From: a virus
Taxonomy: Duplodnaviria > Heunggongvirae > Uroviricota > Caudoviricetes
IMG/VR virus record: IMGVR_UViG_651324002_000003
Coordinates: 19,934-83,933 of that record
Strand: one strand, 5' to 3'
Length of the DNA: 64,000 nt
Shown: in pieces, positions 5,661 to 61,020 of the stretch
Position numbering within the stretch: position 1 is the stretch's first letter
How the letters are laid out: each line of letters starts with the position of its first letter
Notes under the pieces: model-generated
The model's database searches: none
Told to the model about the DNA's origin: nothing
What the model saw: only the letters and a program-made list of their open reading frames with translations
Made by a program: the position numbers and the translations under genes

Positions 5661-6254
5661 TCAAAAATACCCCTTGACCAGGGTAAAGTCAGTCGTCATG
5701 TTATTCAGCAAGTCCTTAATCTGTTCGCCGAAAATTGCCATAAACTGTTCTTCCACATTAACCGAAAACTCATTGCGCATGCCGGCCCGGATCGTTGCGT
5801 ACTCAACGATGAAATCTTCATAATCAGAAGGCCAACCGGAATCAAATTTCTCCAACAACCGTTGCGCCTCCGGGATATAAACAGCAATGAAAGGATATCT
5901 TCCATCCGGGATTGGAACCCAGTGGATGAAGTTCGGTAAAAAATATTTACTTGGCACTCCCGTAGATGTTAAGTCTTGGACTGAATCAAGGTCTACTTTT
6001 GTAATCTTTTTTCCGTTGATCCGCAACTCCAGTATTTTAACCGCCTTCAAGGACAAGTTACTAGTCGCAACGCCTGGTTCTGTAAATCCAGTTTCAGCCG
6101 TGGAAAGCATAAGCGGCGCATGCTTAGAAACAGTGCGCCGCAAAAATTTATGACCTTCATTGATGTAATCCAATAATTCTGGTGTTTTGTACCCAATGTT
6201 CTGTGTATCAACAATCCGATATCGGACACGCTCTACGAGTTCTGAGACTAACAT
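5661..6254 (-). CDS. hypothetical virion protein
   Basis: 197-aa ORF in the structural operon. Confidence 0.4.
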   Translation of the reverse strand: MLVSELVERVRYRIVDTQNIGYKTPELLDYINEGHKFLRRTVSKHAPLMLSTAETGFTEPGVATSNLSLKAVKILELRINGKKITKVDLDSVQDLTSTGVPSKYFLPNFIHWVPIPDGRYPFIAVYIPEAQRLLEKFDSGWPSDYEDFIVEYATIRAGMRNEFSVNVEEQFMAIFGEQIKDLLNNMTTDFTLVKGYF

Positions 6255-6881: not shown

Positions 6882-7852
6882 AGGTCGCCCCCTATCACAA
6901 AAGAGTAAGATTGCACCGCCGGCTCGTCCCCGCCAACATAAATCTTTGCCAAACGAGTGTTTGTCAAAGAATACAAGTACCCATCTGCATATGCCAACCC
7001 CCTACACTGCACAAAAGAACCTAAATCCGCGTGCCAAATTGTATCGACAATTTGCATCGTATTCGGGTCAACCTTGATAATGCTATTCGGACTTGTGCGA
7101 CATTGTACGTATAGATATCCACCTACTGCCAAGCACCTTTCAGGGTTGGTATTTTCATTGTTACCCGCCCCCAAAGGAAGGGTCGTTACAGTCACACCCT
7201 CTTGAGTGAAATTGCTTAAATCGACTTTCGCAATTTTTCCAGGGGCCATGTACATTGGCGAATACAAATGATCTCCGATTATACTGACATCATTACAACG
7301 GTTATTTATAACTGTGGGAAAGGATAGGTTTGCAACAGTCTCCAAGGTGTCTAAATTAATTTTTGTAAAGGCACCTGGCGTCATGCTATTAGCTGTATAA
7401 AGATACCTGCCGCTTATAACTGCACCAGAACACGTTCTGGTGCGGGCGTCAGAAGAATAATACCTTGTTGCTAAAGAGAGGCCCCCTTTAGTGTATTTGT
7501 CCCTATATCCGTTTGCCATTATAAAGTATACATAGTTAGCGTCTGTAGTAACCGCATGTAGCATATTCCCGTTTGCCCTGGCTACGGGAGTAATCAAGCC
7601 TGCCGCGTAATCGACTTTCAACACATAAGCCCCGGAATAGTAAGCCCCATACACTAATCCGTCACTATACACTGCGCCACGAATATCGTTCGAAGATACA
7701 GAGGATATTTGCGTGTTATCGACCAGTGCCAAAGTGTCTAAATTATATCTCCGTATAGCCGTTGGATGATACACAAATACGTACAAATATCCTCCGCCAA
7801 CCGTTACCGCTGTGCCAGACGGCGATATTGCAATCGAACTAACTAACTCCAT
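6878..7852 (-). CDS. repeat protein with five G(G/D)YLY(V/S/T) motifs (beta-propeller-like), tail associated
   Basis: Recurrent GGYLYV / GRYLYTANS / GDHLYSP / GGYLYVQC / DGYLYSLTN repeats about 50 aa apart. Confidence 0.45.
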   Translation of the reverse strand: MELVSSIAISPSGTAVTVGGGYLYVFVYHPTAIRRYNLDTLALVDNTQISSVSSNDIRGAVYSDGLVYGAYYSGAYVLKVDYAAGLITPVARANGNMLHAVTTDANYVYFIMANGYRDKYTKGGLSLATRYYSSDARTRTCSGAVISGRYLYTANSMTPGAFTKINLDTLETVANLSFPTVINNRCNDVSIIGDHLYSPMYMAPGKIAKVDLSNFTQEGVTVTTLPLGAGNNENTNPERCLAVGGYLYVQCRTSPNSIIKVDPNTMQIVDTIWHADLGSFVQCRGLAYADGYLYSLTNTRLAKIYVGGDEPAVQSYSFVIGGDL

Positions 7853-7860
7853 AAGCCCTC

Positions 7861-9759
7861 CTATTCAAATTCCGGATAGACATTGAGCATTTTAATGTTC
7901 GTCGCCGCACTCTCGACCTTGTACCAGAAGGTATCCCCCACCGCATATGGCACTGCTGTCACATCAGTTGTCGCCTCTGCAGTCGAAAACGAAAAGCTGT
8001 ATTGTTCGGCATCGTTTTTATATAGTCTTAATGTGACTTCGGAATTAGGAACAATGCCTGCATTTAAACTCGTATTATCTGTTGATTGTACTGTCAAAGT
8101 TTTTAACGTTCTGGCAGACCGCAGTAAAAGAATTGCAGAACAGGAATTGTTGACCGGATTGATAATTGGTATTGCGACACTGGGCGCAACCTGCCTGACC
8201 TGACCAATACTTGTCTCTATAACAACGTCGCCGCTACCGTCGAAACTGACACTTCCAGTTACATCGCCTTCAAGAGAGATTGTTCGTGCAGTATCTAGTT
8301 TTCTTGCGTTTCGTCTATCCTTTACAATCCACGTGACAGCTCCATCCGTTACTATCTCTCCAAGTGCCGGCCATTCCGGTTCTGTCTCGTAAGCAATACC
8401 GCCAATTACGCATTCGGCATAAGCATAACTGGGAAGCTTAGTGCTGAAAATGATTTCTCCTATGGTATAGTTTGCCCCTGAAATCCATGGAGGGAACTGA
8501 ATACCCTGCGGTCCCTGTGGACCGGCGGGTCCCTGTGATCCTTGTAGTCCCTTTGGACCCTGCGGTCCCTGTGGACCATACATCGCCAGAAGTGCCCAAT
8601 ACGACTCTGACGATTCGTCGCCACTAGGAGGCATGTTCGTGTTCCCGGATAAACAGAAATACGATGCTCCCTCGTACCCAACAGCGTCGTTCTGAAAATA
8701 AGTTGTTGTTGAGTTCCACGCACCCTGCCACGCAAGGCCGATAGGACTTGCCGCTCCTGGAGCCCCCTGCAAGCCAGGCTCCCCGATTGGTCCTTGAACT
8801 CCTTGCATGCCTTGCGGCCCCTGTTCTCCTTGCGGTCCCATGGGACCCATTGGCCCCGGCGGTCCTTCCGGTCCCGGTTCTCCTATATTGCCGGGATCTC
8901 CTTGTTGACCAGCCGGACCGGTTTCGCCCTTTTCGACGATGAGATTCCAATATATTTCTGAAGCTACATCTCCTGTCGGATAGATAGCCGAGTTGTTTTC
9001 TAAGCAATAATAAGCCGAACCATCGTATCGTACAGCATCTCGCTCTACATATGTTTCGGAGTCATCCCACTCGCCGCGCCAATTCACCCCAACAGGTCCT
9101 ATAGGACCTTGTAGTCCTTGCGGCCCCTGCGATCCCTGAATGCCCTGTGGTCCCTGCGGACCTACAGCACCTTGAGAAGCAAGTAGGGCCCAATAAGTAC
9201 TTGATGACGGGTCTCCGGTTGGCGGAACGTTTGTATGTTCAGTTAGACAAAAATAAGATGCTCCACTGTAGCCCACCGCATCGTCTTTAACGTAGGCCGT
9301 TCCATTATCCCATAATCCGCGCCACGTTAGCCCAGCCGGCCCAACAGGTCCCGCAGGTCCCGGCAGTCCCTGTTCTCCTTGCGGTCCCGGTGGTCCTTGA
9401 ACACCTTGCGGACCTGTCTCACCGGTTGGCCCAGCAGGACCTTCTGGCCCTTGTTCACCAACGTCTCCCTGCGGTCCTTGCAATCCCATTGGCCCCTGTG
9501 GTCCCTGTTGACCTGTCAGTCCTTGCGGCCCTCGTTCACCTTGAGGGCCAATTGCCCCTCTTAACCCCTGTGGTCCCTGCGGACCGGTGGGGCCGGGTGG
9601 TCCCTGAGCGCCCTCTATCTCTTCAATTTGTTCTCGAATTTCATCCGCTACTTCTGTAATTACCGCATTTGTTTTGTCGCTTGACCATACCTTATCTGTG
9701 CTGATATTCTGGTCGTCAATAGTAGCCAGACCTGCTGCTTGTCCCCATAGACCGGGCAT
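7861..9759 (-). CDS. collagen-like triple-helix repeat tail fibre protein
   Basis: Four long Gly-X-Y tracts ([22 protein letters not shown]...) separated by three homologous globular modules of about 50 aa. C-terminal non-collagen domain. Confidence 0.8.
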
Positions 9760-13115: not shown

Positions 13116-13787
13116 TTATACTTGATTGGTTCCTTCAACGCCACGTTGCTCCCGGCCCATTGTCCGCTTACGCAGCCACAACAGCGCCTCTTCCAATTTG
13201 GTAATTGCCAAAGCGTTTTCCCTGCAGGCAAACTGTCCTTTCTGGAAATGCTCCAGCCGGCAGATGACCATGGCAATCAAGTCCTCATTGCAGACGCCAT
13301 TTACGCCGCATTCTTTAATAGGACCTTCTTGGAAATGAATTTCCGCCAGCGGAATACCGAAGTAGTCATCATGGTTTCCAATGACCGTAAAGCGATGTGG
13401 TGCGCCGTATTGCATTTCGCTTCCCGGTTCGTGGTAAACTTCGGTATATTTGCTCGTGAGCAGGTCGTGTTGTAATTTTACATATTTGGTTTCTTCTTTC
13501 TCGTAAGTCATTTCAAAGACATCCGGCTTGCATGGGTAGAATTCGCCAACAACACCCTTAATAACGAAATCACCAATTGACGCCAAATGTTCTCCCTCTT
13601 TGGTCTTGATAATCAAGCCACCGTGAACTTTATTGTGATCAATGTAAAAATGTTCGCCCACAACATCCATTGGTCTATCATGAGTCCCCGTTAGAAAGTC
13701 GAACATTTCCCTATGGTTACTTCCCGTCCATTCCAGAGTTGGAACCTTGACAGGTTTCTTACGGTACCATTGAACCATCTCAACCAT
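13116..13787 (-). CDS. two-domain hypothetical protein
   Basis: 223-aa ORF. The N-terminal and C-terminal halves have different character. The C-terminus ends with an RKRTMGREQRGVEGT motif. Confidence 0.45.
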   Translation of the reverse strand: MVEMVQWYRKKPVKVPTLEWTGSNHREMFDFLTGTHDRPMDVVGEHFYIDHNKVHGGLIIKTKEGEHLASIGDFVIKGVVGEFYPCKPDVFEMTYEKEETKYVKLQHDLLTSKYTEVYHEPGSEMQYGAPHRFTVIGNHDDYFGIPLAEIHFQEGPIKECGVNGVCNEDLIAMVICRLEHFQKGQFACRENALAITKLEEALLWLRKRTMGREQRGVEGTNQV

Positions 13788-15361: not shown

Positions 15362-17527
15362 TTATAATGCCGCTCTCATGCTATTAATTACTTGATTCTG
15401 CGGTATCGCCGGTCCCTGCCAACTAGGCATTCCTTGTCCCTGAGGTTGGGACTGCGGCATCGGTGGCACCTGCCCTTGTTGTGGCATCTGCTGTTGCATA
15501 ACCGGTTGTTGTCCGCCGCCCATCATCAGCTGCTGAATGATCGCCATTTGCTGTTCAGGCGGCAATGTCGCAAGTTGCTGTTGCAGGGCTTGCGCCTGCT
15601 GTACTATTTGACCCATGTCCACCGGCGGCTGAATCTGAATGCCGGCCTGCGCCGCCGCCTGCATCTTTCCATCCGGCGGTAAGTCCCGATAATTCAGAGA
15701 TATCCGGGGAGGATTGGTCTGCGGTTGTTGTTTTGCCTGCGCTTCTTGCGCCGCCGCTTGGGCTTGAGCTTCTTTTTCTTCCCGGATTCTTCGGGCAATT
15801 TCGTCCCGGCGCGGGATGTCGGACTCTTCGAGTATCACGTCCGGCGGAACCGGTATTCCGGCCTTAACCGCCTCCAGGAGCATATAGTATTGGGCCATGC
15901 GCTGAGTGGCAGTTGACGGCGTATCCGTGATGACAATGTCGAATTCACCAACAGACAGGTCATTGATTGTCGTCTCAAACCACTGCCCTGTGTTAGGGTC
16001 CTGAATAACCTGTGCGTCATTGACCTGGATAAAATCGTCATGGCCATCTTCGCCGATGATCCGGATAGTTTTGGACTCGGTATAATACTGCGGGATAATC
16101 CCCGGGCAGTTCCGTTTGCCCCAAAGAAGATAGAGTATCCTGCGTTTAAACTTCCGCAGATTGTCAAACAGTGCGGCCACATGGGTGATAGCCTGCTTCT
16201 GCCGTAGCTCTATTGCCCGGCCAGACTGACCTGCCGCATCTTGGCTACCCATCATGGCCTCGTTAATACCGGTCAACTCCCGGATATCGTTTGTCGATAT
16301 CTGTTCTTCCTCCGCTACATTGGTCGGATATGGGGAAGGGGTAATTCGTTGCAGGCTGCTTCCCTTCTGGTGTTTGACTACTACACCAGGAGTGGCGCCG
16401 AAGTTCCGAATGTTTTGCTCTTGCTCTGGCGTCAGTGCCCCATCTTCGGCGATCCAGCCACTGTTCGCCTGGGTGTTAAGAATATGAAGACGCTGAGAAC
16501 GCCGTTTGTTGATTTCCCTTTGCGAGTCCTTCATATTCCTGACAACGCCGGACGGGGTATCTCCCTCGCCAATATAGTAAGCGGTGAGCTGCGCATACGG
16601 CAGGTCCCTATGCTGGTAAGGGCTCTCAATGTCTTCAAGTTCAATCTGACCCAGCATGACCTTAACACGCACTACCTTCTGCGGCTTTTCGACCGTCTGA
16701 GGTTGACCATTGACAATGACCATTTGCGACAGCATGTTGATCTGCACTTGTGATTGCGGGAGCAACGAATCATCCTGCATAACAAAAAACTTGGTCATTC
16801 GCTTTTGGCGATACCACATTTCGATGAGCCGGACCTTATGTCCGTCCTTTTGATACCACAATGGCTCCGCTATGTCGCTACCATATGAGTCCTGTTCGTC
16901 GGTATCATACTCATGCACCATCTGTTCAATGGCCTCGGCATGCTCCGGGTAGACCTCCATTGCCTCATCTTTATCAACCCAGCGCCCCTCACAGACAAAC
17001 TTCGCATCCGATAAGTCTGCTTTCCGGCACTCCGGGTCAACATACATAGAAAACGGCGAAACCCGCTTAATTTGGGCCTCACCGTCCATCGTGTCGTAGT
17101 CAACCTCATATGTAATTTTTGCGAATCCCCTGCCGGCAATGGCCGCATCCAAGAATATGTCGCTCTCTTCTGACTCGAAGTCGCTGGCATCAAAGACGAA
17201 ATTAGTCATGCCCTCCCGGACTTTGCACTTTTTCAGGTCGTCGGCAGTGCGGGGCTTGAATGATGGTTCATAGCGGTTCAGGCGCTGATAGCCAGACAGC
17301 AGGTTTACCGTGGGCTTAACCCGGTTGATTGTGATGACCGGTCGCCCCTGCTTCCGCAGTTTGTCGATCGCTCCCTCATCCCACTGTATTCCGAAATAAA
17401 ACTCATAATCTTCCCTGGCTTCTCGCCGCCAGTCCTGCATGCCGTCTACAGCATCCTTAAACCACCGCCGCGCTATTCCCACGCTGATTGGAATTACCTT
17501 TGCCAACGTACCACCTCCTTCGGACAT
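15362..17527 (-). CDS. portal protein with Q/P-rich C-terminal tail
   Basis: 721 aa. N-terminal DYEFYFGIQW...GRPVITINRVKPTVNLLSGYQ resembles portal conserved blocks. Lies upstream of the capsid module. Confidence 0.7.
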   Translation of the reverse strand: MSEGGGTLAKVIPISVGIARRWFKDAVDGMQDWRREAREDYEFYFGIQWDEGAIDKLRKQGRPVITINRVKPTVNLLSGYQRLNRYEPSFKPRTADDLKKCKVREGMTNFVFDASDFESEESDIFLDAAIAGRGFAKITYEVDYDTMDGEAQIKRVSPFSMYVDPECRKADLSDAKFVCEGRWVDKDEAMEVYPEHAEAIEQMVHEYDTDEQDSYGSDIAEPLWYQKDGHKVRLIEMWYRQKRMTKFFVMQDDSLLPQSQVQINMLSQMVIVNGQPQTVEKPQKVVRVKVMLGQIELEDIESPYQHRDLPYAQLTAYYIGEGDTPSGVVRNMKDSQREINKRRSQRLHILNTQANSGWIAEDGALTPEQEQNIRNFGATPGVVVKHQKGSSLQRITPSPYPTNVAEEEQISTNDIRELTGINEAMMGSQDAAGQSGRAIELRQKQAITHVAALFDNLRKFKRRILYLLWGKRNCPGIIPQYYTESKTIRIIGEDGHDDFIQVNDAQVIQDPNTGQWFETTINDLSVGEFDIVITDTPSTATQRMAQYYMLLEAVKAGIPVPPDVILEESDIPRRDEIARRIREEKEAQAQAAAQEAQAKQQPQTNPPRISLNYRDLPPDGKMQAAAQAGIQIQPPVDMGQIVQQAQALQQQLATLPPEQQMAIIQQLMMGGGQQPVMQQQMPQQGQVPPMPQSQPQGQGMPSWQGPAIPQNQVINSMRAAL

Positions 17528-17554
17528 AGAGAAACCGCCCGAAGGCGGCGTTAT

Positions 17555-17827
17555 TTAAATACACAAAATTCGTTTTGATCCATCTTTTATATACCAGTGA
17601 AAGCAAACCAATGGTCTATATGCATCCATCAAGTCCCACTGCACTTTGTTGTGAATCGAAAGTCTGCCGACTTCAAAGGAGTATTCTTGCTCATCCGTAA
17701 ACAGAAAGTCACGAAACATGTACAGAATACAGAGAATCGCTAATACGGGGTACACAATTGCAAGCAAGGGAAAGTATGACATCGGGTATTTCCCTTCAAC
17801 TCGATACAACAAAACAATCATGAACAT
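17555..17827 (-). CDS. small membrane protein
   Basis: 90 aa with one hydrophobic helix (FPLLAIVYPVLAILCILYMF). Confidence 0.35.
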   Translation of the reverse strand: MFMIVLLYRVEGKYPMSYFPLLAIVYPVLAILCILYMFRDFLFTDEQEYSFEVGRLSIHNKVQWDLMDAYRPLVCFHWYIKDGSKRILCI

Positions 17828-17953
17828 CCTTGCAACCTATCCTTTCTTGTTTTACGCGCTGGATCTCCGTCCAAGAGCTGCGGCAAACGCCCACAAAATA
17901 AAAGTCGTCAGCCAAGGATGCTCGAACATCCAGTCAATGATGGTCCGTTCCAT

Positions 17954-18430
17954 TTATTCGCCCTCCGGCCCTTGCCCATTAACATTTCCTTCTTGCCAGC
18001 AAATCATCTTGCCGTCATGGGAAACAGTAGATAGGTCTGTCGGAGCCGGGGACCGATACAGCATTTCCCCTGCTTGCGGTAGTCGTCTTCCGCAGAATGG
18101 GCAATAAGCAATCGCGACATTAAAGTACGTATCTGGCGCATACAGTCTCCATCCAGTATTGTATTTTTTTATTTTCCAATCACCAAAAATAATATCGTGG
18201 CATTGATGCAGCATTGTGCCAACAGGTTCTCCCTGGCGGGATCGTTTAGCGTCGATCATCTCGGATTTTCGCCGACAGATGGCGGCAGCAATAACAGCCG
18301 CCATGTCTTCTTTGATATCCTGCGTTATGAATCCGTAAGCATCTCCGTCCGCAAACGTCACGACATATTCTCTGGCGTTGCCGGAATCAACCAGATCAGA
18401 CTTAATTGAAATTATTGCCGGTATCTCCAT
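17954..18430 (-). CDS. hypothetical protein with a CPFCG zinc-ribbon motif
   Basis: 158-aa ORF with CPFCGRRLP and additional His/Cys. Confidence 0.4.
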   Translation of the reverse strand: MEIPAIISIKSDLVDSGNAREYVVTFADGDAYGFITQDIKEDMAAVIAAAICRRKSEMIDAKRSRQGEPVGTMLHQCHDIIFGDWKIKKYNTGWRLYAPDTYFNVAIAYCPFCGRRLPQAGEMLYRSPAPTDLSTVSHDGKMICWQEGNVNGQGPEGE

Positions 18431-18434
18431 ACTG

Positions 18435-18695
18435 CTATTCCCCTCCCATAGTCGCCCGGGTTCTCCGGTATTCTATCGCCATTTCCGCAATTTCTGCCCT
18501 TGATAAGTGCTGACCACGTTTTTTGACGGACTCCCTTACTTTAATTTGCCGCCCATCGTCGAAGAAAACAACATGGTCAATAAACATTGCGCGGCCAGCT
18601 TCTCCACGCACACCAATGATCGATGTAATTTTAGGCCTGTTCATCACTATCACTACTCCATATCCTGCACGACTAATAATCATCGTTGCGACCAA
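18435..18695 (-). CDS. hypothetical protein
   Basis: 86-aa ORF. Confidence 0.35.
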   Translation of the reverse strand: MVATMIISRAGYGVVIVMNRPKITSIIGVRGEAGRAMFIDHVVFFDDGRQIKVRESVKKRGQHLSRAEIAEMAIEYRRTRATMGGE

Positions 18696-18783
18696 TAACC
18701 ATTCTTATGTAAATTGCACTTTGTTGATTTTACTGGCCTTGCAGGCTTTATGTTTGGGAAATACCGTTAAGTTTACAATAAAA

Positions 18784-18942
18784 TCATCGTTGTTTACCGT
18801 AATCGGTAAGATTTTCGGGTGGCGGCGTCTGCATGAGGCGCAATCCTACCTCTACAATCTCCGTCTCAACGTCTAAAATCCTGTCTCTGACTACGGCATA
18901 GGGCTCACCATTGATCACTACTTTGCCTATAACGTCAGACAT
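18784..18942 (-). CDS. small hypothetical protein (about 52 aa, found by hand)
   Basis: ATG preceded by a GGGGGAAGG RBS. MSDVIGKVVINGEPY... Coordinates approximate. Confidence 0.25.
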   Translation of the reverse strand: MSDVIGKVVINGEPYAVVRDRILDVETEIVEVGLRLMQTPPPENLTDYGKQR

Positions 18943-18954
18943 TTTACCTTCCCC

Positions 18955-19212
18955 CTAACGGTCCCATGACAATAGTACTAAATTAAAAATCGCCCACGAC
19001 ATGAAGTACGTTGCTCTCACATAGTCGTCCATGCCAATCACTGAGACAAGAGACATGATTATGCAGGTAGAAACAATAATTTTGAGTATTGCGTCCATAT
19101 TTTCTCCTTTGCATTTACTTTTTTTCTTTGGAGGAAATGAACTGCCCCGCCTTTCGACGGGGCCTATCACCCTAAAGACTAAACACCATACCCCTATCCC
19201 ACCCCCTGCCAC
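18955..19212 (-). CDS. small membrane protein (start probably internal)
   Basis: C-terminal half has two hydrophobic segments (ILKIIVSTCIIMSLVSVIG, AIFNLVLL). Confidence 0.3.
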   Translation of the reverse strand: MAGGGIGVWCLVFRVIGPVERRGSSFPPKKKSKCKGENMDAILKIIVSTCIIMSLVSVIGMDDYVRATYFMSWAIFNLVLLSWDR

Positions 19213-19238
19213 CGCATTGTGGCAGTCTCCATCCTATC

Positions 19239-19502
19239 CTATGCTGTTTTCAGAATCAGCCGAATCGCCGTCCGCTCTTGGGCATCGATCTCCACCGTGG
19301 CAAACGCTGGCACGCAAACAAGGTCAATTCCATTCGGCGCCACAAACCCTCTTGCAATCGCAATAGCTTTCATAGCCTGATTCAATGCTCCTGCGCCTAC
19401 TGCCTGGATCTCAAAGCTTTTCCCGTCGCGAATCATGCCGGCAATCGCGCCGGCCACCTTGTTAGAATCGGATTTTGCAGCTACCTTAATCATTTCACTC
19501 AT
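19239..19502 (-). CDS. spoVS: stage V sporulation protein S homologue
   Basis: 87 aa. Near full-length similarity to Bacillus SpoVS (AKS..N.VAGA.AG..R....EIQA.GAGALNQA.KA.AIARGFVAP.G.DL.C.PAF....ID..ERTAI.L). Confidence 0.85.
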   Translation of the reverse strand: MSEMIKVAAKSDSNKVAGAIAGMIRDGKSFEIQAVGAGALNQAMKAIAIARGFVAPNGIDLVCVPAFATVEIDAQERTAIRLILKTA

Positions 19503-19594
19503 AATTTTCTTCTCTCCCTTTTGAATAATTTTTCGTTTTATTTTTATATAACCCCGGCATTTTGATCATTTTATGCACGGAATTGTATAACTAT

Positions 19595-21007
19595 TTACAT
19601 TGCCATCCAGTCAAGTCCATTGTCACGCTTGCGACTGTATGCGTCTCGCTTGCCTTCTGGTTCTGGCTTCTTCGGCGTCCACGGTCGTGACGTCAAGGCA
19701 TAGGCAGTTTCGTCGAAGCAATGATCCTCTCCGGTTGTATCGACCTTCTCAGGTTGCCGCTTATCATGCGTTAAGACCGGTATAGTACGGATATTGTGGA
19801 AACAAGTCTCGAAAAAGACGATCCCCGGAACCTGTTTACCATCACGCCCTTTGTATCCATCCAGTCGCAACTTCAGCTGCTCTGCACCATTTTCCCGGCC
19901 TTTCTCTGATTTAGCGAATGTGGTCTTTTTATACTCTGACAAAACATTGTTGATTTCTTCGGCCACAGTAGGCCCAGTCGTACCAGATGCATTCCAGCAC
20001 GCACTATCAAGTACCCCATATGAAATTTCCCTATCTTCCTTTTCTGCCTCGACTATCTTCATTGCAACCTGCCTGGCGTTTTCTCCAGTTCCCACGTTCG
20101 GCTTGCCTCCATAGCCATACAATTCACGGTACTTCCAAATCATGGAGTCATAATCAACCGCATACCACCCAACTGCGTATGGCCGGTAACTCCCCCAGTC
20201 CATCGACCTGAACCGCAACCATCCTGTCGGGATTGCAAAAGGCTTGCACACATGGATCGTTTTACTCCAGGAAGTAAAAAAGCGTCCTCCAGTGACGCCC
20301 CATTCTCCCTCGCCGTATACTTTATACCCTTCTGGATCTTGAATCTTACGCAGTTCCATGCGTCGATAGTATGCTTCGTCAATAAACCGGTTGTCTCGGT
20401 ATGTGCTATGGTGCGTAAAAATGTCAGGACTTTCAATATCAAAGTATTTCGCTTTAATCCAATGATTCGCGTCAACCGGGTTGAAGCTGAATGTCATTTG
20501 GTAATACAAATTAGGATTCAGCAGTTCGCCGCGCAGGCGGTCGTCAAGGATGTCAACATCGTCCTCATCGAACTCAGTGGCTTCCTCAAGCCATATCCAG
20601 CAGAGTTTCCCACGTTCAAACGTGACGGACTTAATCTTTTCTCGTTGGCTATCGTCTTTCATGCCACGAAAGATGATTTTATTTCCTGTTTTGTTGCACA
20701 CCATTTCAAGCGGGCTCTGCCTAACTGTCCACAACGCACTAGCCATGTCACCGCAAACACGGTTGATTGCGGCCTTGACTTCTGCGTATGTGCTATCTCG
20801 GTTTGATTCGTCAATCTTTCTGACTACCAGGAGATTCGCTCCGGCGTATTTATCATCCATCAGCTTTACAACAAAGTCCTGGGCTATATCGACCGACTTC
20901 CCGCTACCGGCACTACCCTTTGCCGCACGATATCGGCACCTTGTCCTGTTGAATTCGCGAAAAATGGGATTAAACTGGACGCGAATGACATTAGCCATCT
21001 GCACCAT
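19595..21007 (-). CDS. terL: terminase large subunit
   Basis: 470 aa with an N-terminal Walker A (AAKGSAGSGKS) and a C-terminal nuclease-like region. Confidence 0.85.
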   Translation of the reverse strand: MVQMANVIRVQFNPIFREFNRTRCRYRAAKGSAGSGKSVDIAQDFVVKLMDDKYAGANLLVVRKIDESNRDSTYAEVKAAINRVCGDMASALWTVRQSPLEMVCNKTGNKIIFRGMKDDSQREKIKSVTFERGKLCWIWLEEATEFDEDDVDILDDRLRGELLNPNLYYQMTFSFNPVDANHWIKAKYFDIESPDIFTHHSTYRDNRFIDEAYYRRMELRKIQDPEGYKVYGEGEWGVTGGRFFTSWSKTIHVCKPFAIPTGWLRFRSMDWGSYRPYAVGWYAVDYDSMIWKYRELYGYGGKPNVGTGENARQVAMKIVEAEKEDREISYGVLDSACWNASGTTGPTVAEEINNVLSEYKKTTFAKSEKGRENGAEQLKLRLDGYKGRDGKQVPGIVFFETCFHNIRTIPVLTHDKRQPEKVDTTGEDHCFDETAYALTSRPWTPKKPEPEGKRDAYSRKRDNGLDWMAM

Positions 21008-21446
21008 CGCCGTAATCTATAATGATACGGGTTTCAGTTTCTATCGGTTTACCATCTTTGCCGGTATGCTCGATTTGTTTTTGGTCCTTATATAGACCTT
21101 TTAGTTCGAAAAACAGCTTTATTGCGCTGGTATCACCTATCTTGCATTTGCGCACCAGTGCCTTCCAGACTTCATTTATTTCACTGTTGGTGTATTTATC
21201 GATCTGTTTATTGAGATAGTTTACAAACCTTTCATCCTTCATCCACCGGTAAAAAACCTGTTCTGTTAGTCCAGCGGCTTTTATCTTCTCCGCCTTTGAC
21301 CTTCTATCGTCAGGATTTAAAAGCATCTCAGTCACTCTGACCAATTCAGGCCGTGGTGTCCAAACACTAACGGTTTTTGGTCTTTTTCTTTCCTGGCTTT
21401 TTTTCGTTTGCTTTTCCTGCGTCATCATCTCCACCACCGTATTCAC
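20991..21446 (-). CDS. terS: terminase small subunit (putative)
   Basis: 151-aa basic protein overlapping the terL start. HTH-like stretch (GLTEQVFYRWMKD). Confidence 0.5.
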   Translation of the reverse strand: MNTVVEMMTQEKQTKKSQERKRPKTVSVWTPRPELVRVTEMLLNPDDRRSKAEKIKAAGLTEQVFYRWMKDERFVNYLNKQIDKYTNSEINEVWKALVRKCKIGDTSAIKLFFELKGLYKDQKQIEHTGKDGKPIETETRIIIDYGDGADG

Positions 21447-30153: not shown

Positions 30154-30597
30154 TTATGCGTCCTTCCAGTCTCCGAAAAGCATCCGGCCCCGGAATTTGA
30201 GTGTGTTCTCTACACTTTCCAGGTCACTCCGCAAGTTTTTGAGTTTTTCGTATAGTCCAAGGGCCCTCGCTTCTGCCAGCCGTTTTTCCTTTGCCGCCGC
30301 TTCAGCTTCCATGTCGAGCTGCTTGGCGGTAAAGGATTGGCTTTGTGTGATATATTCCCTGTGCCGGCTTACCCAGTCTTCAGCCGTTCCGCTCTTTCTT
30401 TCCGCTTCGGCTATTCCGGCCAATTCCAGCGCTTCCCCAGCCAGCCGGCCTACTCTGGCCTTCACCGCGCTTATGTACTGCAGTTTATCGAGGATCAAAT
30501 CTTTTTCAGTCAGCGGTTGTGTTTCAAGTTCGGCGATAACCCGGTAAACGTTCGTCAATGCTTGGCAGTGCTGGACTAACTGTTCGGCAGTCATTGT
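30154..30597 (-). CDS. coiled-coil hypothetical protein (start trimmed to the internal Met)
   Basis: ORF 30154..30678 overlaps abrB by 88 nt. The internal MTAEQLV start sits just after the abrB stop. Confidence 0.4.
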   Translation of the reverse strand, partial: TMTAEQLVQHCQALTNVYRVIAELETQPLTEKDLILDKLQYISAVKARVGRLAGEALELAGIAEAERKSGTAEDWVSRHREYITQSQSFTAKQLDMEAEAAAKEKRLAEARALGLYEKLKNLRSDLESVENTLKFRGRMLFGDWKDA

Positions 30598-30830
30598 TTT
30601 ACTTGGCCAACACATTTCTGGCACAGACCGATATGACCGATTTCCTTCACAACCTCGGGATGATTGCAGGCGGCGCACACCTGGCTGTACTTGCGGAGAA
30701 TTATTTTGTCGTTGTCAGTAAAAATTTCAATTGGCGTTCCAGTATCAATGCCGTAAATTCGCCGCAATTCCTTGGGTATTACGATCCTTCCGAGATCATC
30801 CAGTTCCCTTACAATTCCTGTCGCTTTCAA
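30591..30830 (-). CDS. abrB: AbrB/SpoVT-family DNA-binding protein with a C-terminal Cys cluster
   Basis: N-terminal GIVRELDDLGRIVIPKELRR swapped-hairpin motif. C-terminal CAACNHPE...CQKCVG. Confidence 0.75.
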   Translation of the reverse strand: MKATGIVRELDDLGRIVIPKELRRIYGIDTGTPIEIFTDNDKIILRKYSQVCAACNHPEVVKEIGHIGLCQKCVGQVKQ

Positions 30831-31618: not shown

Positions 31619-32353
31619 CTACTTGTTCAGGTTCAGCATCGGCAGCGTATTGCCACCCCAATAAGCCGGCAGCTTTCCATCCCACTTATTAATCGCCATT
31701 TCCTGTAATACCATCGGACTCAGGCTGGTATGCTTCGTCTTTTGAGCCTCAGCCTCCAGGGCAACCCGCTCCTTGTTATACCGTGCCGTTAAAACTCCCT
31801 GTTCTGCGATTTTCTTGGCTTCTACTGCATGATTATATTCGTCGCTGAAATCATGATTAGTAATCAAGAGATCCTTGACAACTAGACCGTTGCCAGTCGT
31901 TTTTTCAACAAATACTGCCTTAATCCTGGCGCTAATTTCTTGGCGCCGTTCCACAAATGATTCAATCGGATATTCCGCAACCATGGAGTTAACAGTTTCG
32001 GCCAACGTCGGCGACACCAAAATAGTCTGATATTCAGTGCCAAATCTTTGATAGATTGTTCCGATTTCACCGGGGTTCACGGCATAAACCAAACTCACAT
32101 CCACCTTAATTGTCTGCATGTCCTTACTAGATACCTCCAAGGACAGAGGAAAATTCTGTTCTCGGATGCTCATTTTCTTCACACTGTCGATAAACGGCAG
32201 TTTAAAGTTCAAGCCCTCGTCCATGATCCCATGTAACTTGCCCATGCGGGTTATTACCCCGCGTTCACCGGTTTCAATTGTTGTTATCATGCCGAATAAC
32301 AAAATGATGATTAAAAAGACCCCGCACACTCCCAAAATTAATGATTTTTTCAC
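31619..32353 (-). CDS. SPFH/band-7 (prohibitin/HflK-C-like) membrane protein
   Basis: N-terminal TM helix, then GERGVITRMGKLHG...GLNFKLPFIDSV and the characteristic PHB-domain layout. Confidence 0.75.
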   Translation of the reverse strand: MKKSLILGVCGVFLIIILLFGMITTIETGERGVITRMGKLHGIMDEGLNFKLPFIDSVKKMSIREQNFPLSLEVSSKDMQTIKVDVSLVYAVNPGEIGTIYQRFGTEYQTILVSPTLAETVNSMVAEYPIESFVERRQEISARIKAVFVEKTTGNGLVVKDLLITNHDFSDEYNHAVEAKKIAEQGVLTARYNKERVALEAEAQKTKHTSLSPMVLQEMAINKWDGKLPAYWGGNTLPMLNLNK

Positions 32354-38441: not shown

Positions 38442-38678
38442 TTATCCCCTCCGCTTATTCAGCAGAATAACGTTTAAGACAACAACGGCTTTGCATTTTC
38501 CTTTTTGTGCTATCAAATCACTAATGCGTTCGATATCGCCGATTTCATTAATTTTAAAATTGGTATTGAAGGTTATTCTTCCAAAGCCGTTCCCTGTTTC
38601 TGTCTGGCAGGCATATGACACAAAGTATTTATACTCCGGCTTTCCAAATAGCTTTTTAATGGCCGTTATGATCGACAT
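38442..38678 (-). CDS. hypothetical protein
   Basis: 78-aa ORF. Confidence 0.35.
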   Translation of the reverse strand: MSIITAIKKLFGKPEYKYFVSYACQTETGNGFGRITFNTNFKINEIGDIERISDLIAQKGKCKAVVVLNVILLNKRRG

Positions 38679-40582
38679 AACAATCCCCTCTCTATCGCCG
38701 ACTCTTCATCCTGTTTCACCCAGATTTCTTGGTTAGAAAGCTCCCATTCCCAGCCAAGCTTACCGGCCATCCAGGCAACTAATATCTGATTTCCCATCGC
38801 CTGAGCCGCAGCCGGCGGAACTGCATTCCCGATTGCTTCTCGCCACCGAGCATCCGATTTACCGGCCAGTACCAGGGGTGAACCGTCTGGCATGGTCAGA
38901 GGTATGGACTGTAAAGCAGCCAGTTCAAGGGTAGTCAGCGGTCTGTGCCATGTCCCATCCTCAGCGATAATCACATACACACCGGATTCATTGTCCGCCG
39001 GGATTCTCGGATCGGCGACCGCCGCCGTTCCAGCGTGAACATCTGCAGAGCCTATTACTGTTTTTGCCGGTTCGTCCCATTGGGTTACGCCCATCGTACC
39101 GTTTCTGACGGTGCAACCAAAACGCGGGTCCGGGATTGATTGAGCACCAGCCTGTATGTCCTGTATTCCGGTTACCGTTGTTGCATGCTTATCCCACTCG
39201 CCAACCTGATATTTGTTGCTAAAGCCTTTTTCTCTGGTTATCCGTGGGTCTGATATTGAAGCCCTACTAGCCATGACTTGCATGTTGCCGCGAATCGTGA
39301 CACCAGACTCATCCCATTTTTGAACACCGTAGCTATCCGGATACATCTTACAATTAAACCGTGGGTCCGATATCGCCGGCGCCCCGCTACCGAATCTTGT
39401 TCCCGTCACACATGGTCCTGTTTCGTCAAACTTTACAACCCGGTAAACTGCCGGATGCTTCCCTTCGCATGCCTGCAGTCTTGGATCAGGAATAACCGTA
39501 GCACCGTTGTTCGGTCTAAACGCCCCAGTCACCGTATTGGCTGGCTCATCGTATCGGCTGACCCTGTAAATTGTTTTATGGGTACTATCCGCATTTAAAG
39601 TCATTCTCGGGTCTGGTATGGCGGCTGCCGTGCTTCCCCCGGGACGCATATTTCCGGTAACCGTTCCACTCGGCTCTTCCCAGTCCATAACTCCAAAAGT
39701 GCTTTTACGCGGTTCATGTTCAATACGGTACTGCTCCGGGTTTATGTTCTGCAGATCCCGCCAGTCGCCGCCAGCAGGAATAAGCGCTAGGCGTACCCAA
39801 GTTTTCCACTGCAACCGTGGCATCCGATGCATCGGGCCGGCGGCCGGATCATCAGGCAATGGCATGGGGCCAATTATATCGCCAACTGTTTTGAGCGGAA
39901 GTTTTGGCGGTTTATATACAAACGCCGGTACTTTATCAGGCTGTCTGGCAAGCAACAAAAATCTTTTTCTGCTCTGCCCCAGCCCTCCGATCTCGCCGCA
40001 GTCGTGGATTTCATTTTCTTTATGTACAATCTCATAACCGAACGATTTCAACATACGTCTGATTTCTTTCAGCAATTCCGCTCCTCTAGTCCGTATCCGT
40101 GGCACATTTTCAAAAATGATGATTCCCGGCAAGTTGAGCTCAAACGCTTTAAGAGTCAGATATATGCATCGCAACGTCAGGCGATTCAAAGCCTGATATT
40201 TTTTACTTTCAGCTGCTTTCCTCGGCAATAACCCTGAAAACCCTTTGCACGGTCCGGAAATAAATACGGTATCCGGGTATTCCCCACCGGTTGCCTCGTA
40301 TATATCATCAGGCGTCACTTCCCGCCAACCTTCAGGTGGTTCCTTTCCGTGAAAGTCAATATAATCTTGCCAGCTGAAGAAATCCATTCTGACTGCTGGT
40401 GCTCCAGTCATCATTTCAAAATCTTCGCAAGCCAGCGGATCAACGTCAAATCCTTTCAATGTCCGGAATCGACCGACAGCTCCTTTGTATTCTCCGATAG
40501 ATTTTTGCATCCCGAATGCTGCCATGCCTGCGCCACAACATAGATGAATTACCTTGTTTTCGTAAATTTGTGCCCTTAGCAA
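38666..40582 (-). CDS. DNA (cytosine-5)-methyltransferase with six tandem TRD-like repeats (putatively multispecific)
   Basis: Motif I LCCGAGMAAFG, motif IV GPCKGFS, motif VI ENVPRI, motif IX RPLTTLELAALQ, motif X IGNAVPP. Between VIII and IX there are six repeats of about 37 aa of the form W(D/E)E....TVTG..........(I/V).DPR. Confidence 0.85.
   Translation of the reverse strand: MLRAQIYENKVIHLCCGAGMAAFGMQKSIGEYKGAVGRFRTLKGFDVDPLACEDFEMMTGAPAVRMDFFSWQDYIDFHGKEPPEGWREVTPDDIYEATGGEYPDTVFISGPCKGFSGLLPRKAAESKKYQALNRLTLRCIYLTLKAFELNLPGIIIFENVPRIRTRGAELLKEIRRMLKSFGYEIVHKENEIHDCGEIGGLGQSRKRFLLLARQPDKVPAFVYKPPKLPLKTVGDIIGPMPLPDDPAAGPMHRMPRLQWKTWVRLALIPAGGDWRDLQNINPEQYRIEHEPRKSTFGVMDWEEPSGTVTGNMRPGGSTAAAIPDPRMTLNADSTHKTIYRVSRYDEPANTVTGAFRPNNGATVIPDPRLQACEGKHPAVYRVVKFDETGPCVTGTRFGSGAPAISDPRFNCKMYPDSYGVQKWDESGVTIRGNMQVMASRASISDPRITREKGFSNKYQVGEWDKHATTVTGIQDIQAGAQSIPDPRFGCTVRNGTMGVTQWDEPAKTVIGSADVHAGTAAVADPRIPADNESGVYVIIAEDGTWHRPLTTLELAALQSIPLTMPDGSPLVLAGKSDARWREAIGNAVPPAAAQAMGNQILVAWMAGKLGWEWELSNQEIWVKQDEESAIERGLLCRS
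39005..39721 (-). repeat. six tandem repeats of about 111 bp (about 37 aa) inside the C5-methyltransferase gene, encoding TRD-like modules
   Basis: Repeats read in the translation: ...VTGNMRPGGSTAAAIPDPR / VTGAFRPNNGATVIPDPR / VTGTRFGSGAPAISDPR / IRGNMQVMASRASISDPR / VTGIQDIQAGAQSIPDPR / VIGSADVHAGTAAVADPR. Confidence 0.7.
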
Positions 40583-42895: not shown

Positions 42896-43302
42896 AAAGG
42901 AATCTCCTCATCTGGAAATACGTCCTTACCGAATGAACTCATATCTACGGGCGCTGACCCGGCTTCTGGGGCACCTTGTTTCTTACTGTCCAAAAACTCA
43001 ATGTTTTGAGCAATAACCTCGGTTACATAGCGGCGCTGTTTTTCAGCCGTTTCATAGCTACGGACCTGCATCCGTCCTTCCACCAGCACCCGCCGGCCCT
43101 TGGTCAGATTATTACCGGCGACCTCGGCCAGCTTCGACCAGGCGACTACTGGTATGAAATCCGCCTCCCGTTTCTCCGGTGACGAACTTTGCCTATTTAC
43201 GGCTACAGTAAAAGACGCTACGGCTTTTCCGCTTTGTGTGTAACGGACTTCTGGATCTTTTGCCAAATGTCCAACGAGTATGACTTTATTAATTTTGTCC
43301 AC
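42892..43302 (-). CDS. ssb: single-stranded DNA-binding protein
   Basis: OB-fold pattern (ILVGHLAKDPEVRYTQSGKAVASFTVAVNR) and an acidic C-terminal tail ...DEEIPF. Confidence 0.85.
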   Translation of the reverse strand: MDKINKVILVGHLAKDPEVRYTQSGKAVASFTVAVNRQSSSPEKREADFIPVVAWSKLAEVAGNNLTKGRRVLVEGRMQVRSYETAEKQRRYVTEVIAQNIEFLDSKKQGAPEAGSAPVDMSSFGKDVFPDEEIPF

Positions 43303-44174
43303 TCCCCTTCATGTTCTTTTGCCACTGGAAACTTCGACCGCAATCCTAAATCACTGCAGTAAATGGCCGGTCTATACCAATATCGTTGAAATTTCTTCCA
43401 TTCCTCGCTGTACTCTATCCATTCTTTCGGCTGGTATAGTTGTGCACGAGGCAACATTCCGGCAAACGCTACCGATTTTAATCTGGCTTCGTTTTTCGCC
43501 ATATCATCGCCAATGAGCACATAGCAGTGCAAGTTGTCCCGTCTAAACCCAGCCTTTAGGAGATTAGCAGCAACTTTTTTTATCCCCGGCACCGAGCCGT
43601 CACAGTCCGCTGCAAACCATAGTTTATCAATCTTCAGCGACCGCATCTGTTCAATATCCCAATCGGTTAATCGAACTGCCTCCAGTCCGCCTTTAAACTC
43701 TATCCTGCTCTGTTTCTTGAGCATGTCGTATACTTTCGCCCGGTGCTCCTGAGAACACGCCAGAAAGTTATTGTCTTGAATGATATTCCCTTCAGTAATC
43801 GGCAGTTCGCGTAGTTTCCCCTCTCTCTTGGGAACAAAACAAAAACTGCAGTTATTCGGGCATCCTCGGGACGTGAATGTCATGCCCTTGCGGACATACA
43901 TTCCTGAAACAAAATCGCCGCCGGCATCGCCAAAGGCCGGCCCGCCAATCTTAACAGGTTTATCAGTAGCTCCCCCCCATTGGTACTGCAGTTCCTGGCA
44001 CCACTCTCTATCCCAGGTAAATACACAACAAACATGAACTTCATCATGGGCAGGAATAAACAACTCAGGAGGACCGAAAAAGCACATATCGTCATCCGGC
44101 GTATAACTATTCCGCCTGGGGAATACTCGAATAATTTTTGAATAGTCCATACTCATCACCACGCTTTTTGTCAC
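43218..44174 (-). CDS. radical SAM domain protein
   Basis: Canonical CxxxCxxC (GCPNNCSFC) about 100 aa from the N-terminus. 318 aa. Overlaps the next gene. Confidence 0.6.
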   Translation of the reverse strand: MTKSVVMSMDYSKIIRVFPRRNSYTPDDDMCFFGPPELFIPAHDEVHVCCVFTWDREWCQELQYQWGGATDKPVKIGGPAFGDAGGDFVSGMYVRKGMTFTSRGCPNNCSFCFVPKREGKLRELPITEGNIIQDNNFLACSQEHRAKVYDMLKKQSRIEFKGGLEAVRLTDWDIEQMRSLKIDKLWFAADCDGSVPGIKKVAANLLKAGFRRDNLHCYVLIGDDMAKNEARLKSVAFAGMLPRAQLYQPKEWIEYSEEWKKFQRYWYRPAIYCSDLGLRSKFPVAKEHEGEWTKLIKSYSLDIWQKIQKSVTHKAEKP

Positions 44175-45262: not shown

Positions 45263-46048
45263 TTACTCAAACATTACGGTCTGGTCTGGATTCTCTTTGC
45301 CTTTACCGTCCCGATCATATGCCCACCAATTAAACCAATCTTCGGCAGATTGCCAAGTCATGATTTCTCCCTTTGCGTCTTTCCGCTTTTTTAGGATATC
45401 CCATCCCATCTGAGTGGCCATTTTATAAGCTTCGTAAATTTTGGGCCACCGGGTTGCGTCTCTGGAGATATCGTGTTGCATCGGGCACATCACGCATCCC
45501 AATCTTTCAAACCCTTCGTCATATAGGCTACAATAAGGCAATTTTACTGACCGAATGTATTCCCAAATGTCATGGTAAGTCCAGTCTATGATAGGATGAA
45601 AATACCGCTTTGAGTTGTCCGTATAGCATTGTTCAACCATTGCGCGCCGTTTTCGCCTTGAACTTTCTTCCCACCTTACGCCAGTGATAACCAGTCTTCC
45701 CTTTCCGCCGCATTCTTTTAGTACAGCGCAACACCACCTGCGGTGTCTTAATGGCAAATCTCCTTTCCGGGCTATCAACTGCCACATTGTTTCTTTAGGT
45801 AAATGGCGCTCAACTTCCGGATGCTCCCGCCGGATAAACTGCACTAATTCAGGGGGATCAACGGTAGTCAGGTTGTAGTGGGCGTCATATTTCACGCCGG
45901 CGTGCTTCACGAGGTCAAGAGTCACACACGAATCCTTCCCGCCGCTAAACGCCACATAGTACCCTTCTGGCGGCTCAAACTGGCGTATCCGGTCAATTGC
46001 TATCTGCACTTTATCTCTGATTCCGAAAAGCGTATGTTCTACCAGCAT
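45263..46048 (-). CDS. PAPS-reductase-family PP-loop protein
   Basis: PP-loop VAFSGGKDS and a C-terminal Cys cluster (CSLYDEGFERLGCVMCP). Confidence 0.75.
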   Translation of the reverse strand: MLVEHTLFGIRDKVQIAIDRIRQFEPPEGYYVAFSGGKDSCVTLDLVKHAGVKYDAHYNLTTVDPPELVQFIRREHPEVERHLPKETMWQLIARKGDLPLRHRRWCCAVLKECGGKGRLVITGVRWEESSRRKRRAMVEQCYTDNSKRYFHPIIDWTYHDIWEYIRSVKLPYCSLYDEGFERLGCVMCPMQHDISRDATRWPKIYEAYKMATQMGWDILKKRKDAKGEIMTWQSAEDWFNWWAYDRDGKGKENPDQTVMFE

Positions 46049-60710: not shown

Positions 60711-60995
60711 TTACGCAGAAACCTGTCTGTTTTTCGACCAAGCAAGCAGTTCATCTTTGATAAACCGGCGTCGCTTTCCAAGCCAGAAATACGGTAATCC
60801 ATCGTTTTTTATCAGGACATATATCTGGCAACGCGATACCTTCATGAATTTGGCAGCTTGGCTCATTGTCATGATCGAAGATATCTTTTCTTGTGGTTCT
60901 GGCATCTTTGGTTCAGGTTTTGGTACCGGAGTGCCACACTCTGCGCAAAACTTTTCATTTCCGTTAAGTGCAGTAGAGCACTTTGAACATTTCAT
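60711..60995 (-). CDS. zinc-ribbon plus excisionase-like HTH protein
   Basis: N-terminal CSKC...CAEC ribbon. C-terminal MSQAAKFMKVSRCQIYVLIKNDGLPYFWLGKRRRF resembles HTH_17/Xis. Confidence 0.5.
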   Translation of the reverse strand: MKCSKCSTALNGNEKFCAECGTPVPKPEPKMPEPQEKISSIMTMSQAAKFMKVSRCQIYVLIKNDGLPYFWLGKRRRFIKDELLAWSKNRQVSA

Positions 60996-61020
60996 ATTCT
61001 CACCTCACTTTCTTACCGTT

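Follow-up and report, generated by a model that had tools for sequence, protein, structure and literature searches.

Cellular SpoVS is a protein of about 86 amino acids (aa) with an Alba-like fold, described from Bacillus subtilis, Bacillus thuringiensis (SpoVS1) and Thermus thermophilus (crystal structures 2EH1 and 2EK0). Mutants of B. subtilis spoVS show delayed polar septation, a block at stage V and increased sigma-D-dependent expression (summarised in PMC2732212). Nucleic-acid binding by means of the Alba fold is predicted (PMC2732212, PMC11621453). In B. thuringiensis both spoVS1 and spoVS2 are sigma-H dependent, and their mutants show reduced pro-sigE and spoIIE transcription; SpoVS1 can be replaced in part by SpoVS2, a protein of 91 aa with 72% identity to it, and overexpression of SpoVS1 nearly abolishes spores (PMC8510167). 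A copy of about 70% identity can therefore act in the same, dose-sensitive pathway. Here we describe a SpoVS gene among the packaging genes of a temperate phage of Acetonema longum, contained in a 64,000-nucleotide stretch of the IMG/VR record IMGVR_UViG_651324002_000003 (the window). Our reading, which we judge evenly balanced between right and wrong, is that temperate phages of spore-forming Negativicutes keep a diverged SpoVS paralogue in the slot between the genes of the terminase large subunit (TerL) and the portal, and that its product alters the SpoVS dose of the host and delays or blocks sporulation.

The presence of spoVS in phages is already known from PHROGs, from GenBank and from virome papers, in which it is reported as an auxiliary gene (PMC6172770, PMC8940887). 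Sixteen GenBank phage records possess it, several of them annotated as stage V sporulation protein S, and a homologue is encoded on at least 486 IMG/VR contigs. The annotated examples (PHROG 35646; Bacillus phage BCD7 gp31; Lysinibacillus LysYB1/2; Streptomyces BRock) are phage-borne like the window gene and are read in the literature as sporulation-modulating, but they belong to other phage lineages and annotated hosts, lie in early, nucleotide-metabolism or recombination regions instead of between TerL and portal, and share 40-56% identity with the window protein. Another case of phage-borne homologues of host developmental regulators able to perturb dormancy is that of sigma factors related to sigF/sigG, whose effect is shown experimentally; the concept is the same as for phage SpoVS, but their biochemical mechanism is known. 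Archaeal Alba/Sso10b shares the fold class of the window SpoVS (Foldseek probability 1.0, template-modelling (TM) score about 0.6) at only 12-18% identity; Alba/Sso10b are chromatin and RNA-binding proteins under acetylation control, whereas nucleic-acid binding of SpoVS is predicted only. Added here are the host, the exclusion of a recent capture, a conserved Sporomusaceae-type lineage of prophages whose TerL-portal slot contains SpoVS, the purifying but fast evolution of the gene, its absence in relatives from non-spore-forming hosts, and an unexpected link of other phage SpoVS with recombination modules.

Identity and divergence of the window SpoVS

The gene was annotated as follows:

19239..19502, minus strand: SpoVS-family coding sequence, 87 aa, ATG start (matches in Pfam, PHROG, PDB and structure models)

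An earlier note on this DNA had taken the product for a SpoVS-like protein, and the open reading frame (ORF) is confirmed as a true phage-carried SpoVS homologue, far beyond chance. It matches Pfam PF04232 over nearly the full length (profile positions 1-82 of 83, E 2.3e-35, 120.7 bits at a cut-off of 24), PHROG 35646 'sporulation protein' of the category moron/AMG/host takeover (E 2.8e-26) and, in phmmer, the T. thermophilus SpoVS of PDB 2eh1 (E 1.6e-23). The AlphaFold2 model, built from a ten-sequence alignment (predicted local distance difference test, pLDDT, 77.6), forms a single domain with the beta-alpha-beta-alpha-beta-beta order of the Alba/IF3-C fold. In Foldseek its TM score is 0.82 against 2eh1/2ek0 and equally against 9a7h_B, a model of B. 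subtilis SpoVS; the Alba-type matches comprise Ssh10b, Pyrococcus Alba, Sso10b2 and Rpp20/25, all with probabilities of 0.99-1.0 and TM scores of about 0.6 (~0.62 for archaeal Alba). All core residues are present (G36 A37 G38 A39, N41 Q42, K45, A48 I49 A50 R51 G52, P56, P65 A66 F67), the central block AVGAGALNQAMKAIAIARGFVAPNGIDLVCVPAF is near-identical to that of cellular SpoVS, and of the 44 positions with at least 95% conservation among 218 cellular homologues the window protein keeps 38. The invariant core GAGA-NQA-KA-AIARG...PAF is retained despite divergence from every cellular SpoVS.

The top structural match, PDB 9a7h, is a B. subtilis SpoVS-YunD complex modelled integratively from cross-linking and AI. 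This model suggests YunD as a possible protein partner of SpoVS; no paper naming the two together was found in the sporulation literature searched.

A protein record identical to the product is named 'stage V sporulation protein S [Acetonema longum]', and the window TerL is recorded as an A. longum PBSX-family terminase. These matches assign the window to Acetonema longum, a Negativicute with an endospore cycle (PMC13018214), for which a series of RNA-seq and proteomics exists that spans vegetative, stationary/sporulating, dormant-spore and germinating stages (GSE306945; PMC13018214). The earlier note's proposal that the phage manipulates host sporulation concerns a host that does sporulate, so the objection of a missing sporulation programme does not apply. 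The element is a large temperate phage with nearly all genes on the minus strand. The window has 100% identity to the Logan contigs SRR29904084/85; no close cultured relative was found, as megablast of 14-24 kb of the window against 50,697 GenBank phages gave no match.

A recent capture of the gene from the host, which the earlier note had raised, is excluded by the identity ceiling, used in place of a direct comparison of phage and host copies. Among 5.8 billion proteins the only match above ~71% identity is the A. longum protein itself, and the best non-self match is about 70% identical, against 80-90% among cellular copies. The 218 cellular homologues have a mean pairwise identity of 83%, whereas the window protein is on average 64% identical to them. 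One Sporomusaceae SpoVS is 80-88% identical to copies of Alicyclobacillus, Desulfovirgula, Bacillus and Megamonas; the native SpoVS of the Sporomusaceae isolate Pelorhabdus (L150) is 90% identical to the cellular consensus and 65% to the window protein. The native gene of Pelorhabdus lies in the order deaD-recA-recX-rny-x-spoVS, and the context in B. subtilis is recA...rny-ymdB-spoVS. In contrast, the window gene is located among packaging genes; a sigma-H-type promoter, as upstream of B. subtilis spoVS and B. thuringiensis spoVS1/2, was not recognised by eye. Its nucleotide composition (GC 0.52, GC3 0.53) does not stand out from that of TerL (0.48/0.52) and portal (0.53/0.59), which is consistent with long residence. 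In a neighbour-joining tree (84 columns, 200 bootstraps) the phage SpoVS form long branches that arise basal to the cellular Firmicutes cluster or next to it; their monophyly is unsupported (0.5% for the window protein with those of L003 and L018). Judged from sequence, the identity gap, the foreign context and the phage-like GC and GC3 make the window SpoVS an old, ameliorated phage resident, a paralogue or xenologue and not an orthologue of the host gene.

SpoVS2 of B. thuringiensis is also a second, diverged copy in a spore-former, with a divergence similar to that of the window protein. However, SpoVS2 is chromosomal, fixed across the B. cereus group and equipped with a basic tail (GPRKRRS), whereas the window protein lacks the tail and is located inside a packaging module. 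SpoVS2-type genes in IMG/VR prophage calls have an ImmA-like protease and an integrase as neighbours. A link of the B. cereus-group SpoVS2 itself with the edge of a prophage is possible. The best GenBank phage match of the window protein (65%) is a 91-aa SpoVS in 'Stenotrophomonas phage TS-12' (MW302330), with a GPRKKRS tail of the B. cereus-group SpoVS2 type. Four upstream gene clusters are common to TS-12 and the loci of the B. cereus group (L080-L084); TS-12 also carries an ABC-transporter ATPase, and its Stenotrophomonas host label looks doubtful.

The slot between terminase and portal

The window locus contains the following features, in the direction of transcription:

20991..21446, minus strand: terminase small subunit TerS, HTH_Tnp_1_2 type (Pfam and PHROG matches)
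19595..21007, minus strand: terminase large subunit TerL, directly upstream of SpoVS (Terminase_3, E 4.6e-47; phrog_3717)
19503..19594, minus strand: AT-rich spacer of 92 bp from TerL stop to SpoVS start (GC 0.27 vs 0.47 for the window)
19543..19553, minus strand: TATA-rich -10-like element preceded by GG(G)TT, recurring upstream of SpoVS in relatives
19512..19519, minus strand: ribosome-binding site AGGGAGAG of SpoVS, a good site by sequence reading
19205..19224 and 19144..19163 (about), minus strand: two G+C-rich hairpins 3' of the SpoVS stop (terminator scan, RNA fold)
17555..19098, minus strand: five small orphan ORFs from SpoVS to portal (gene calls; family scans), namely
18955..19098, minus strand: orphan ORF of 47 aa (gene call)
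18784..18942, minus strand: orphan ORF of 52 aa (gene call)
18435..18644, minus strand: orphan ORF of 69 aa (gene call)
17954..18430, minus strand: orphan ORF of 158 aa (sub-threshold family matches only)
17555..17821, minus strand: orphan ORF of 88 aa (phrog_33263, unknown function, E 8.6e-07)
17534..17549, minus strand: hairpin just upstream of the portal start, at the end of the accessory block (terminator scan)
15362..17527, minus strand: P22-like portal (PF16510, E 1.5e-138)

SpoVS had been placed between portal and terminase genes. It does follow TerL directly and on the same strand, but five small ORFs intervene before the portal, and the TerL-portal gap of the window measures 2.07 kb with six ORFs including SpoVS. 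Except for the 88-aa product, the orphan ORFs have no significant family match in Pfam and PHROG scans, and none of the five has tblastn matches in related loci, i.e. they are not conserved among the relatives. The 'own AT-rich upstream region' of the earlier note is correct as to composition and is accompanied by a good ribosome-binding site, but an independent promoter does not follow from it: the promoter scan detected no sigma-70-type promoter on the SpoVS coding strand upstream of the gene, and the low GC content of the spacer is not evidence of one. A sigma-H-like motif (AGGA...GAAT type) was not seen by eye in the 92-bp spacer either, sigma-H promoters of Negativicutes being uncharacterised. 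The GG(G)TT-TATA element occurs once in the window, no more than by chance, and is therefore not assigned as a late-promoter motif; it is -10-like without a -35 element. Downstream, the region 19144..19224 (minus strand) folds with -42.4 kcal/mol (z -3.0), and the hairpin 19144..19163 is terminator-like with a weak T tract.

TerL and SpoVS were used to scan IMG/VR as well as genome and assembly collections for relatives. In about ten related prophages SpoVS occupies the TerL-portal slot or lies next to TerL, with TerL identities to the window of 34-78%:

L096, Anaerospora hongkongensis, TerL 78%: SpoVS between TerL and portal
L102, Anaerosporomusa subterranea metagenome-assembled genome (MAG), TerL 78%: SpoVS between TerL and portal
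L143, Logan assembly, TerL 74%: SpoVS between TerL and portal
L144, Logan assembly, TerL 73%: SpoVS between TerL and portal
L018, IMG/VR contig, TerL 69%: SpoVS after TerL; the contig ends soon after SpoVS, portal unseen
L149, Firmicutes MAG, TerL 67%: SpoVS after TerL; portal unseen, looks like a degraded prophage
L003, TerL 67%: SpoVS between TerS and TerL; TerL-portal gap 49 nt
L147, Logan assembly, TerL 61%: SpoVS between TerL and portal
L104/L105, IMG/VR contigs (same protein recorded from a Firmicutes MAG), TerL 34-41%: SpoVS after TerL in L104 (portal lost at the contig end or not identified), ahead of the portal in L105

Other relatives lack SpoVS:

L146: TerL-Prp-portal
L145: slot with Prp, a Tad2-like protein and 'Sequestin' (Tad2-like/'Sequestin' region 7300..8289)
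L148, Anaerosinus massiliensis: slot with Prp and a Tad2-like protein (5722..6204)
L015, Phascolarctobacterium MAG: TerL-portal gap of ~430 nt

About 35 further IMG/VR contigs without SpoVS possess a TerL-portal gap of ~430 nt as well, and a second Phascolarctobacterium MAG (L017) ends inside TerL. The slot is a hot spot of accessory genes. SpoVS has the position of a moron or cargo gene, between two core genes and absent from there in close relatives; of a promoter and terminator of its own, which would permit expression from the repressed prophage, the downstream hairpins are present, and upstream only the -10-like TATA without a -35 element is found.

The gene is conserved in related phages, so the objection of a lack of conservation, raised in the earlier note, does not apply: about ten phages carry it, and dN/dS values of 0.19 (L018/L104) and 0.10 (L096/L102) indicate purifying selection. 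Together with the 38 of 44 near-invariant positions kept, these values argue for a functional protein. Phage SpoVS diverges faster than TerL in 33 of 36 pairs, unlike the extremely conserved cellular protein. TerL and SpoVS identities are correlated by Pearson (0.69) and not significantly by Spearman (0.24), the close pairs alone driving the correlation.

Carriers with named hosts are the prophages of Acetonema longum, Anaerospora hongkongensis and Anaerosporomusa subterranea; Anaerospora and Anaerosporomusa are spore-forming genera. Named-host relatives without SpoVS are those of the Phascolarctobacterium MAGs and of Anaerosinus massiliensis. Among the named-host relatives, SpoVS carriage coincides with spore-forming genera and is absent from non-spore-forming hosts.

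Several further features were observed around the slot. A protein with an Acb2/Tad1 hairpin (anti-CBASS/Thoeris sponge fold) is encoded at 13116..13787 of the window (minus strand), a few genes beyond the portal; counter-defence and accessory cargo genes appear to concentrate around the portal. Many TerL homologues of the clade are ~810 aa long and contain Hint/intein-splicing domains (PF07591, PF14890; P0282, P0286, P0307, P0317; L016, L045-L053). Due to these intein-interrupted terminases, the TerL match is limited to residues 1-269 or split in two in several loci. Just upstream of TerL in L018 (6101..6820) lies a 239-aa ORF whose N-terminus GSGISRSAGIPTGWD is SIR2-like by eye only; a defence-related or NAD-related cargo function is conceivable.

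Possible roles of the phage SpoVS

Family, fold and phage context are established for the window SpoVS, a gene that is conserved in prophages of Acetonema, Anaerospora, Anaerosporomusa and uncultured relatives and diverged from the cellular protein. Phage tuning of host sporulation is plausible by analogy. Retaining the surfaces that are invariant in cellular SpoVS, the phage protein would most likely engage the same partner or partners as the host protein, candidates being nucleic acid, another protein or, by oligomerisation, SpoVS itself; as a result, infected or lysogenic cells would have a different effective dose of SpoVS. As a shortage and an excess of SpoVS both disturb polar septation, sigma-E/sigma-K-dependent expression and spore yield in Bacilli, host sporulation would most likely be delayed or blocked until the phage has finished its lytic growth. 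A change in how the lysogen sporulates is less likely and would need transcription from the prophage. Our best guess for expression is a late read-through transcript from the packaging operon, ending at the downstream hairpins, because SpoVS follows TerL without a terminator between them and without a canonical promoter.

Several points weigh against this dosage reading. A late packaging operon is an odd place for an early actor on a host developmental decision. The host correlation is made from five named hosts, with relatives inspected over 8-10 kb either side of TerL. A homology search seeded with Sporomusaceae SpoVS and a look-up of ten clusters returned no Acetonema-named copy of the host's own spoVS, and the literature searched contains no experimental test of any phage SpoVS (expression, binding or phenotype). 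The faster evolution relative to TerL could reflect drift to a different target. Phages whose annotated hosts are Streptomyces and Bacteroides, neither of which forms endospores, also carry SpoVS homologues, and SpoVS is likewise present in non-sporulating bacterial phyla (PMC2732212); these hosts, together with the recombination contexts described below, indicate that the family is not intrinsically sporulation-specific and that sporulation manipulation is not the sole reading. The AbrB-like gene, which the earlier note had enlisted as a second sign of interference with sporulation or transition-state decisions, is real but not specific:

30591..30830, minus strand: AbrB/MazE/SpoVT-type swapped-hairpin protein, 79 aa, with a Cys-rich C-terminus (PF04014, E 1.7e-11, residues 11-50)

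The swapped-hairpin fold is generic, common to MazE antitoxins and many phage regulators, and therefore lends no specific support to sporulation targeting; the CxxC...CxxC C-terminal part of the product is unlike AbrB.

Gene neighbourhoods were clustered for 97 SpoVS loci, comprising the window, three GenBank phages and contigs of IMG/VR, and the recurrent neighbours were annotated. In group A (at least 28 loci; L004, L114-L142) SpoVS is flanked by genes of a Cas4-like exonuclease and a RuvC-like resolvase on one side and of an SbcD-like exonuclease on the other, and its SpoVS copies are only about 45-50% identical. In group B (~12 loci; L064, L076-L090, L098-L099, L103) SpoVS is located between SbcC-like and RecT-like genes, several of these loci sharing a sample with SpoVS-lacking TerL relatives, and in group F (four loci; L092, L093, L095, L101) it lies directly upstream of RecT. 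A general link between phage SpoVS and packaging was rejected, since outside the window lineage the neighbours are recombination, nucleotide-metabolism or integration genes.

That three unrelated phage groups place SpoVS among RecT, SbcC/SbcD, RuvC-like and Cas4-like genes speaks for an alternative which we regard as possible, if tentative: phage SpoVS would be a general Alba-fold nucleic-acid binder for the phage's own DNA or RNA transactions and not specific to sporulation, e.g. a recombination or concatemer-processing accessory before packaging, or an mRNA-binding regulator of late genes. The Alba-like fold and the predicted nucleic-acid binding (PMC2732212, PMC11621453) are in line with this, as are the homologues in phages annotated with Streptomyces and Bacteroides hosts and the co-orientation of the window SpoVS with the terminase genes, which it follows directly. 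On the other hand, close relatives package their DNA without SpoVS, which is therefore dispensable in the lineage; carriage tracks spore-forming hosts among the named cases; the SbcCD module of the window itself (54798..58543) has no adjacent SpoVS; and the group A copies may be a functionally distinct subfamily. The recombination contexts, the terminase neighbour in the window and the native Sporomusaceae gene adjoining recA-recX-rny all hint at a nucleic-acid-directed function of the family. The wider statement that phage SpoVS are not sporulation effectors at all, and instead small Alba-fold accessory factors recruited for recombination, concatemer processing or packaging, we consider rather unlikely.

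Neutralisation of a host immunity or stress pathway unrelated to sporulation, i.e. counter-defence or other host-takeover cargo, is improbable. The same slot does hold a Tad2-like protein with 'Sequestin' in L145 and a Tad2-like protein in L148, the Acb2/Tad1-hairpin protein lies few genes past the portal, and the fast evolution of phage SpoVS relative to TerL resembles that of arms-race cargo; but this evidence is one of position, no SpoVS family member is tied to defence in the literature searched, and the core shared with the cellular protein argues for mimicry of a host function and not for a new ligand. Very improbable is a decaying host passenger, or the host's own spoVS beside the prophage, without any phage function. 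The gene is small and situated in a variable region, and some 'viral' SpoVS of IMG/VR look like host genes at prophage edges (L063; SpoVS2 of the B. cereus group beside an integrase). However, the window ORF is intact with a ribosome-binding site, it lies within the TerL-portal interval in the orientation of both genes, and the native Sporomusaceae context is entirely different; on sequence grounds, its conservation in about ten related phages, the dN/dS of 0.1-0.2 and the near-invariant positions kept effectively refute the passenger.

SpoVS ranks among the sporulation-associated proteins of highest conservation, and its diverged yet selected phage copies amount to natural experiments. Should sporulation be altered by the copy of the Acetonema prophage, this would be a first functional example of a phage using SpoVS, and a phage layer would be added to the sporulation of a diderm model organism studied for outer-membrane biogenesis. 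If it instead serves nucleic-acid transactions, the phage copies would be a tractable handle on the biochemical activity of SpoVS, unknown since 1995. The pattern is testable: SpoVS is retained in the TerL-portal slot where the hosts of this phage lineage form spores, and is lacking where they do not.

Other features of the phage

Apart from the packaging region, the window contains the following features:

61423..62076, plus strand: CI-like repressor (HTH_3 and Peptidase_S24)
61021..61284, minus strand: Cro-like HTH, divergent from the CI-like repressor
54798..58543: SbcC/SbcD-like recombination module, SpoVS not beside it
51086..52135, minus strand: ParM/Alp-like actin
45263..46048, minus strand: PAPS-reductase-domain protein, early/middle region
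43218..44174, minus strand: radical-SAM-like protein (weak match), early/middle region
38666..40582: cytosine methylase
31619..32353, minus strand: SPFH/Band-7 protein, early/middle region
7861..9759, minus strand: collagen/CBM5_12 fibre, 632 aa, with four collagen triple-helix repeat stretches and two CBM5/12 modules

The CI/Cro-type lysogeny switch (61021..62076) identifies the element as a temperate phage, and an excisionase-like HTH is found alongside the switch (60711..62076). We saw no integrase gene in the 64 kb of the window; it may be encoded beyond the ends of this stretch, or the prophage may persist as a plasmid. No phage sigma factor is present among the window ORFs scanned, and the relative L143 possesses a Sigma70_r2 gene. 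Further genes of the window code for a DnaC-like loader, a beta clamp, PhoH, the capsid and an SU10-type adaptor. The SPFH, radical-SAM-like, PAPS-reductase-domain and cytosine methylase genes may have DNA-modification or host-takeover functions, and the 632-aa collagen/CBM5_12 protein is probably a polysaccharide-directed tail fibre or receptor-binding protein.

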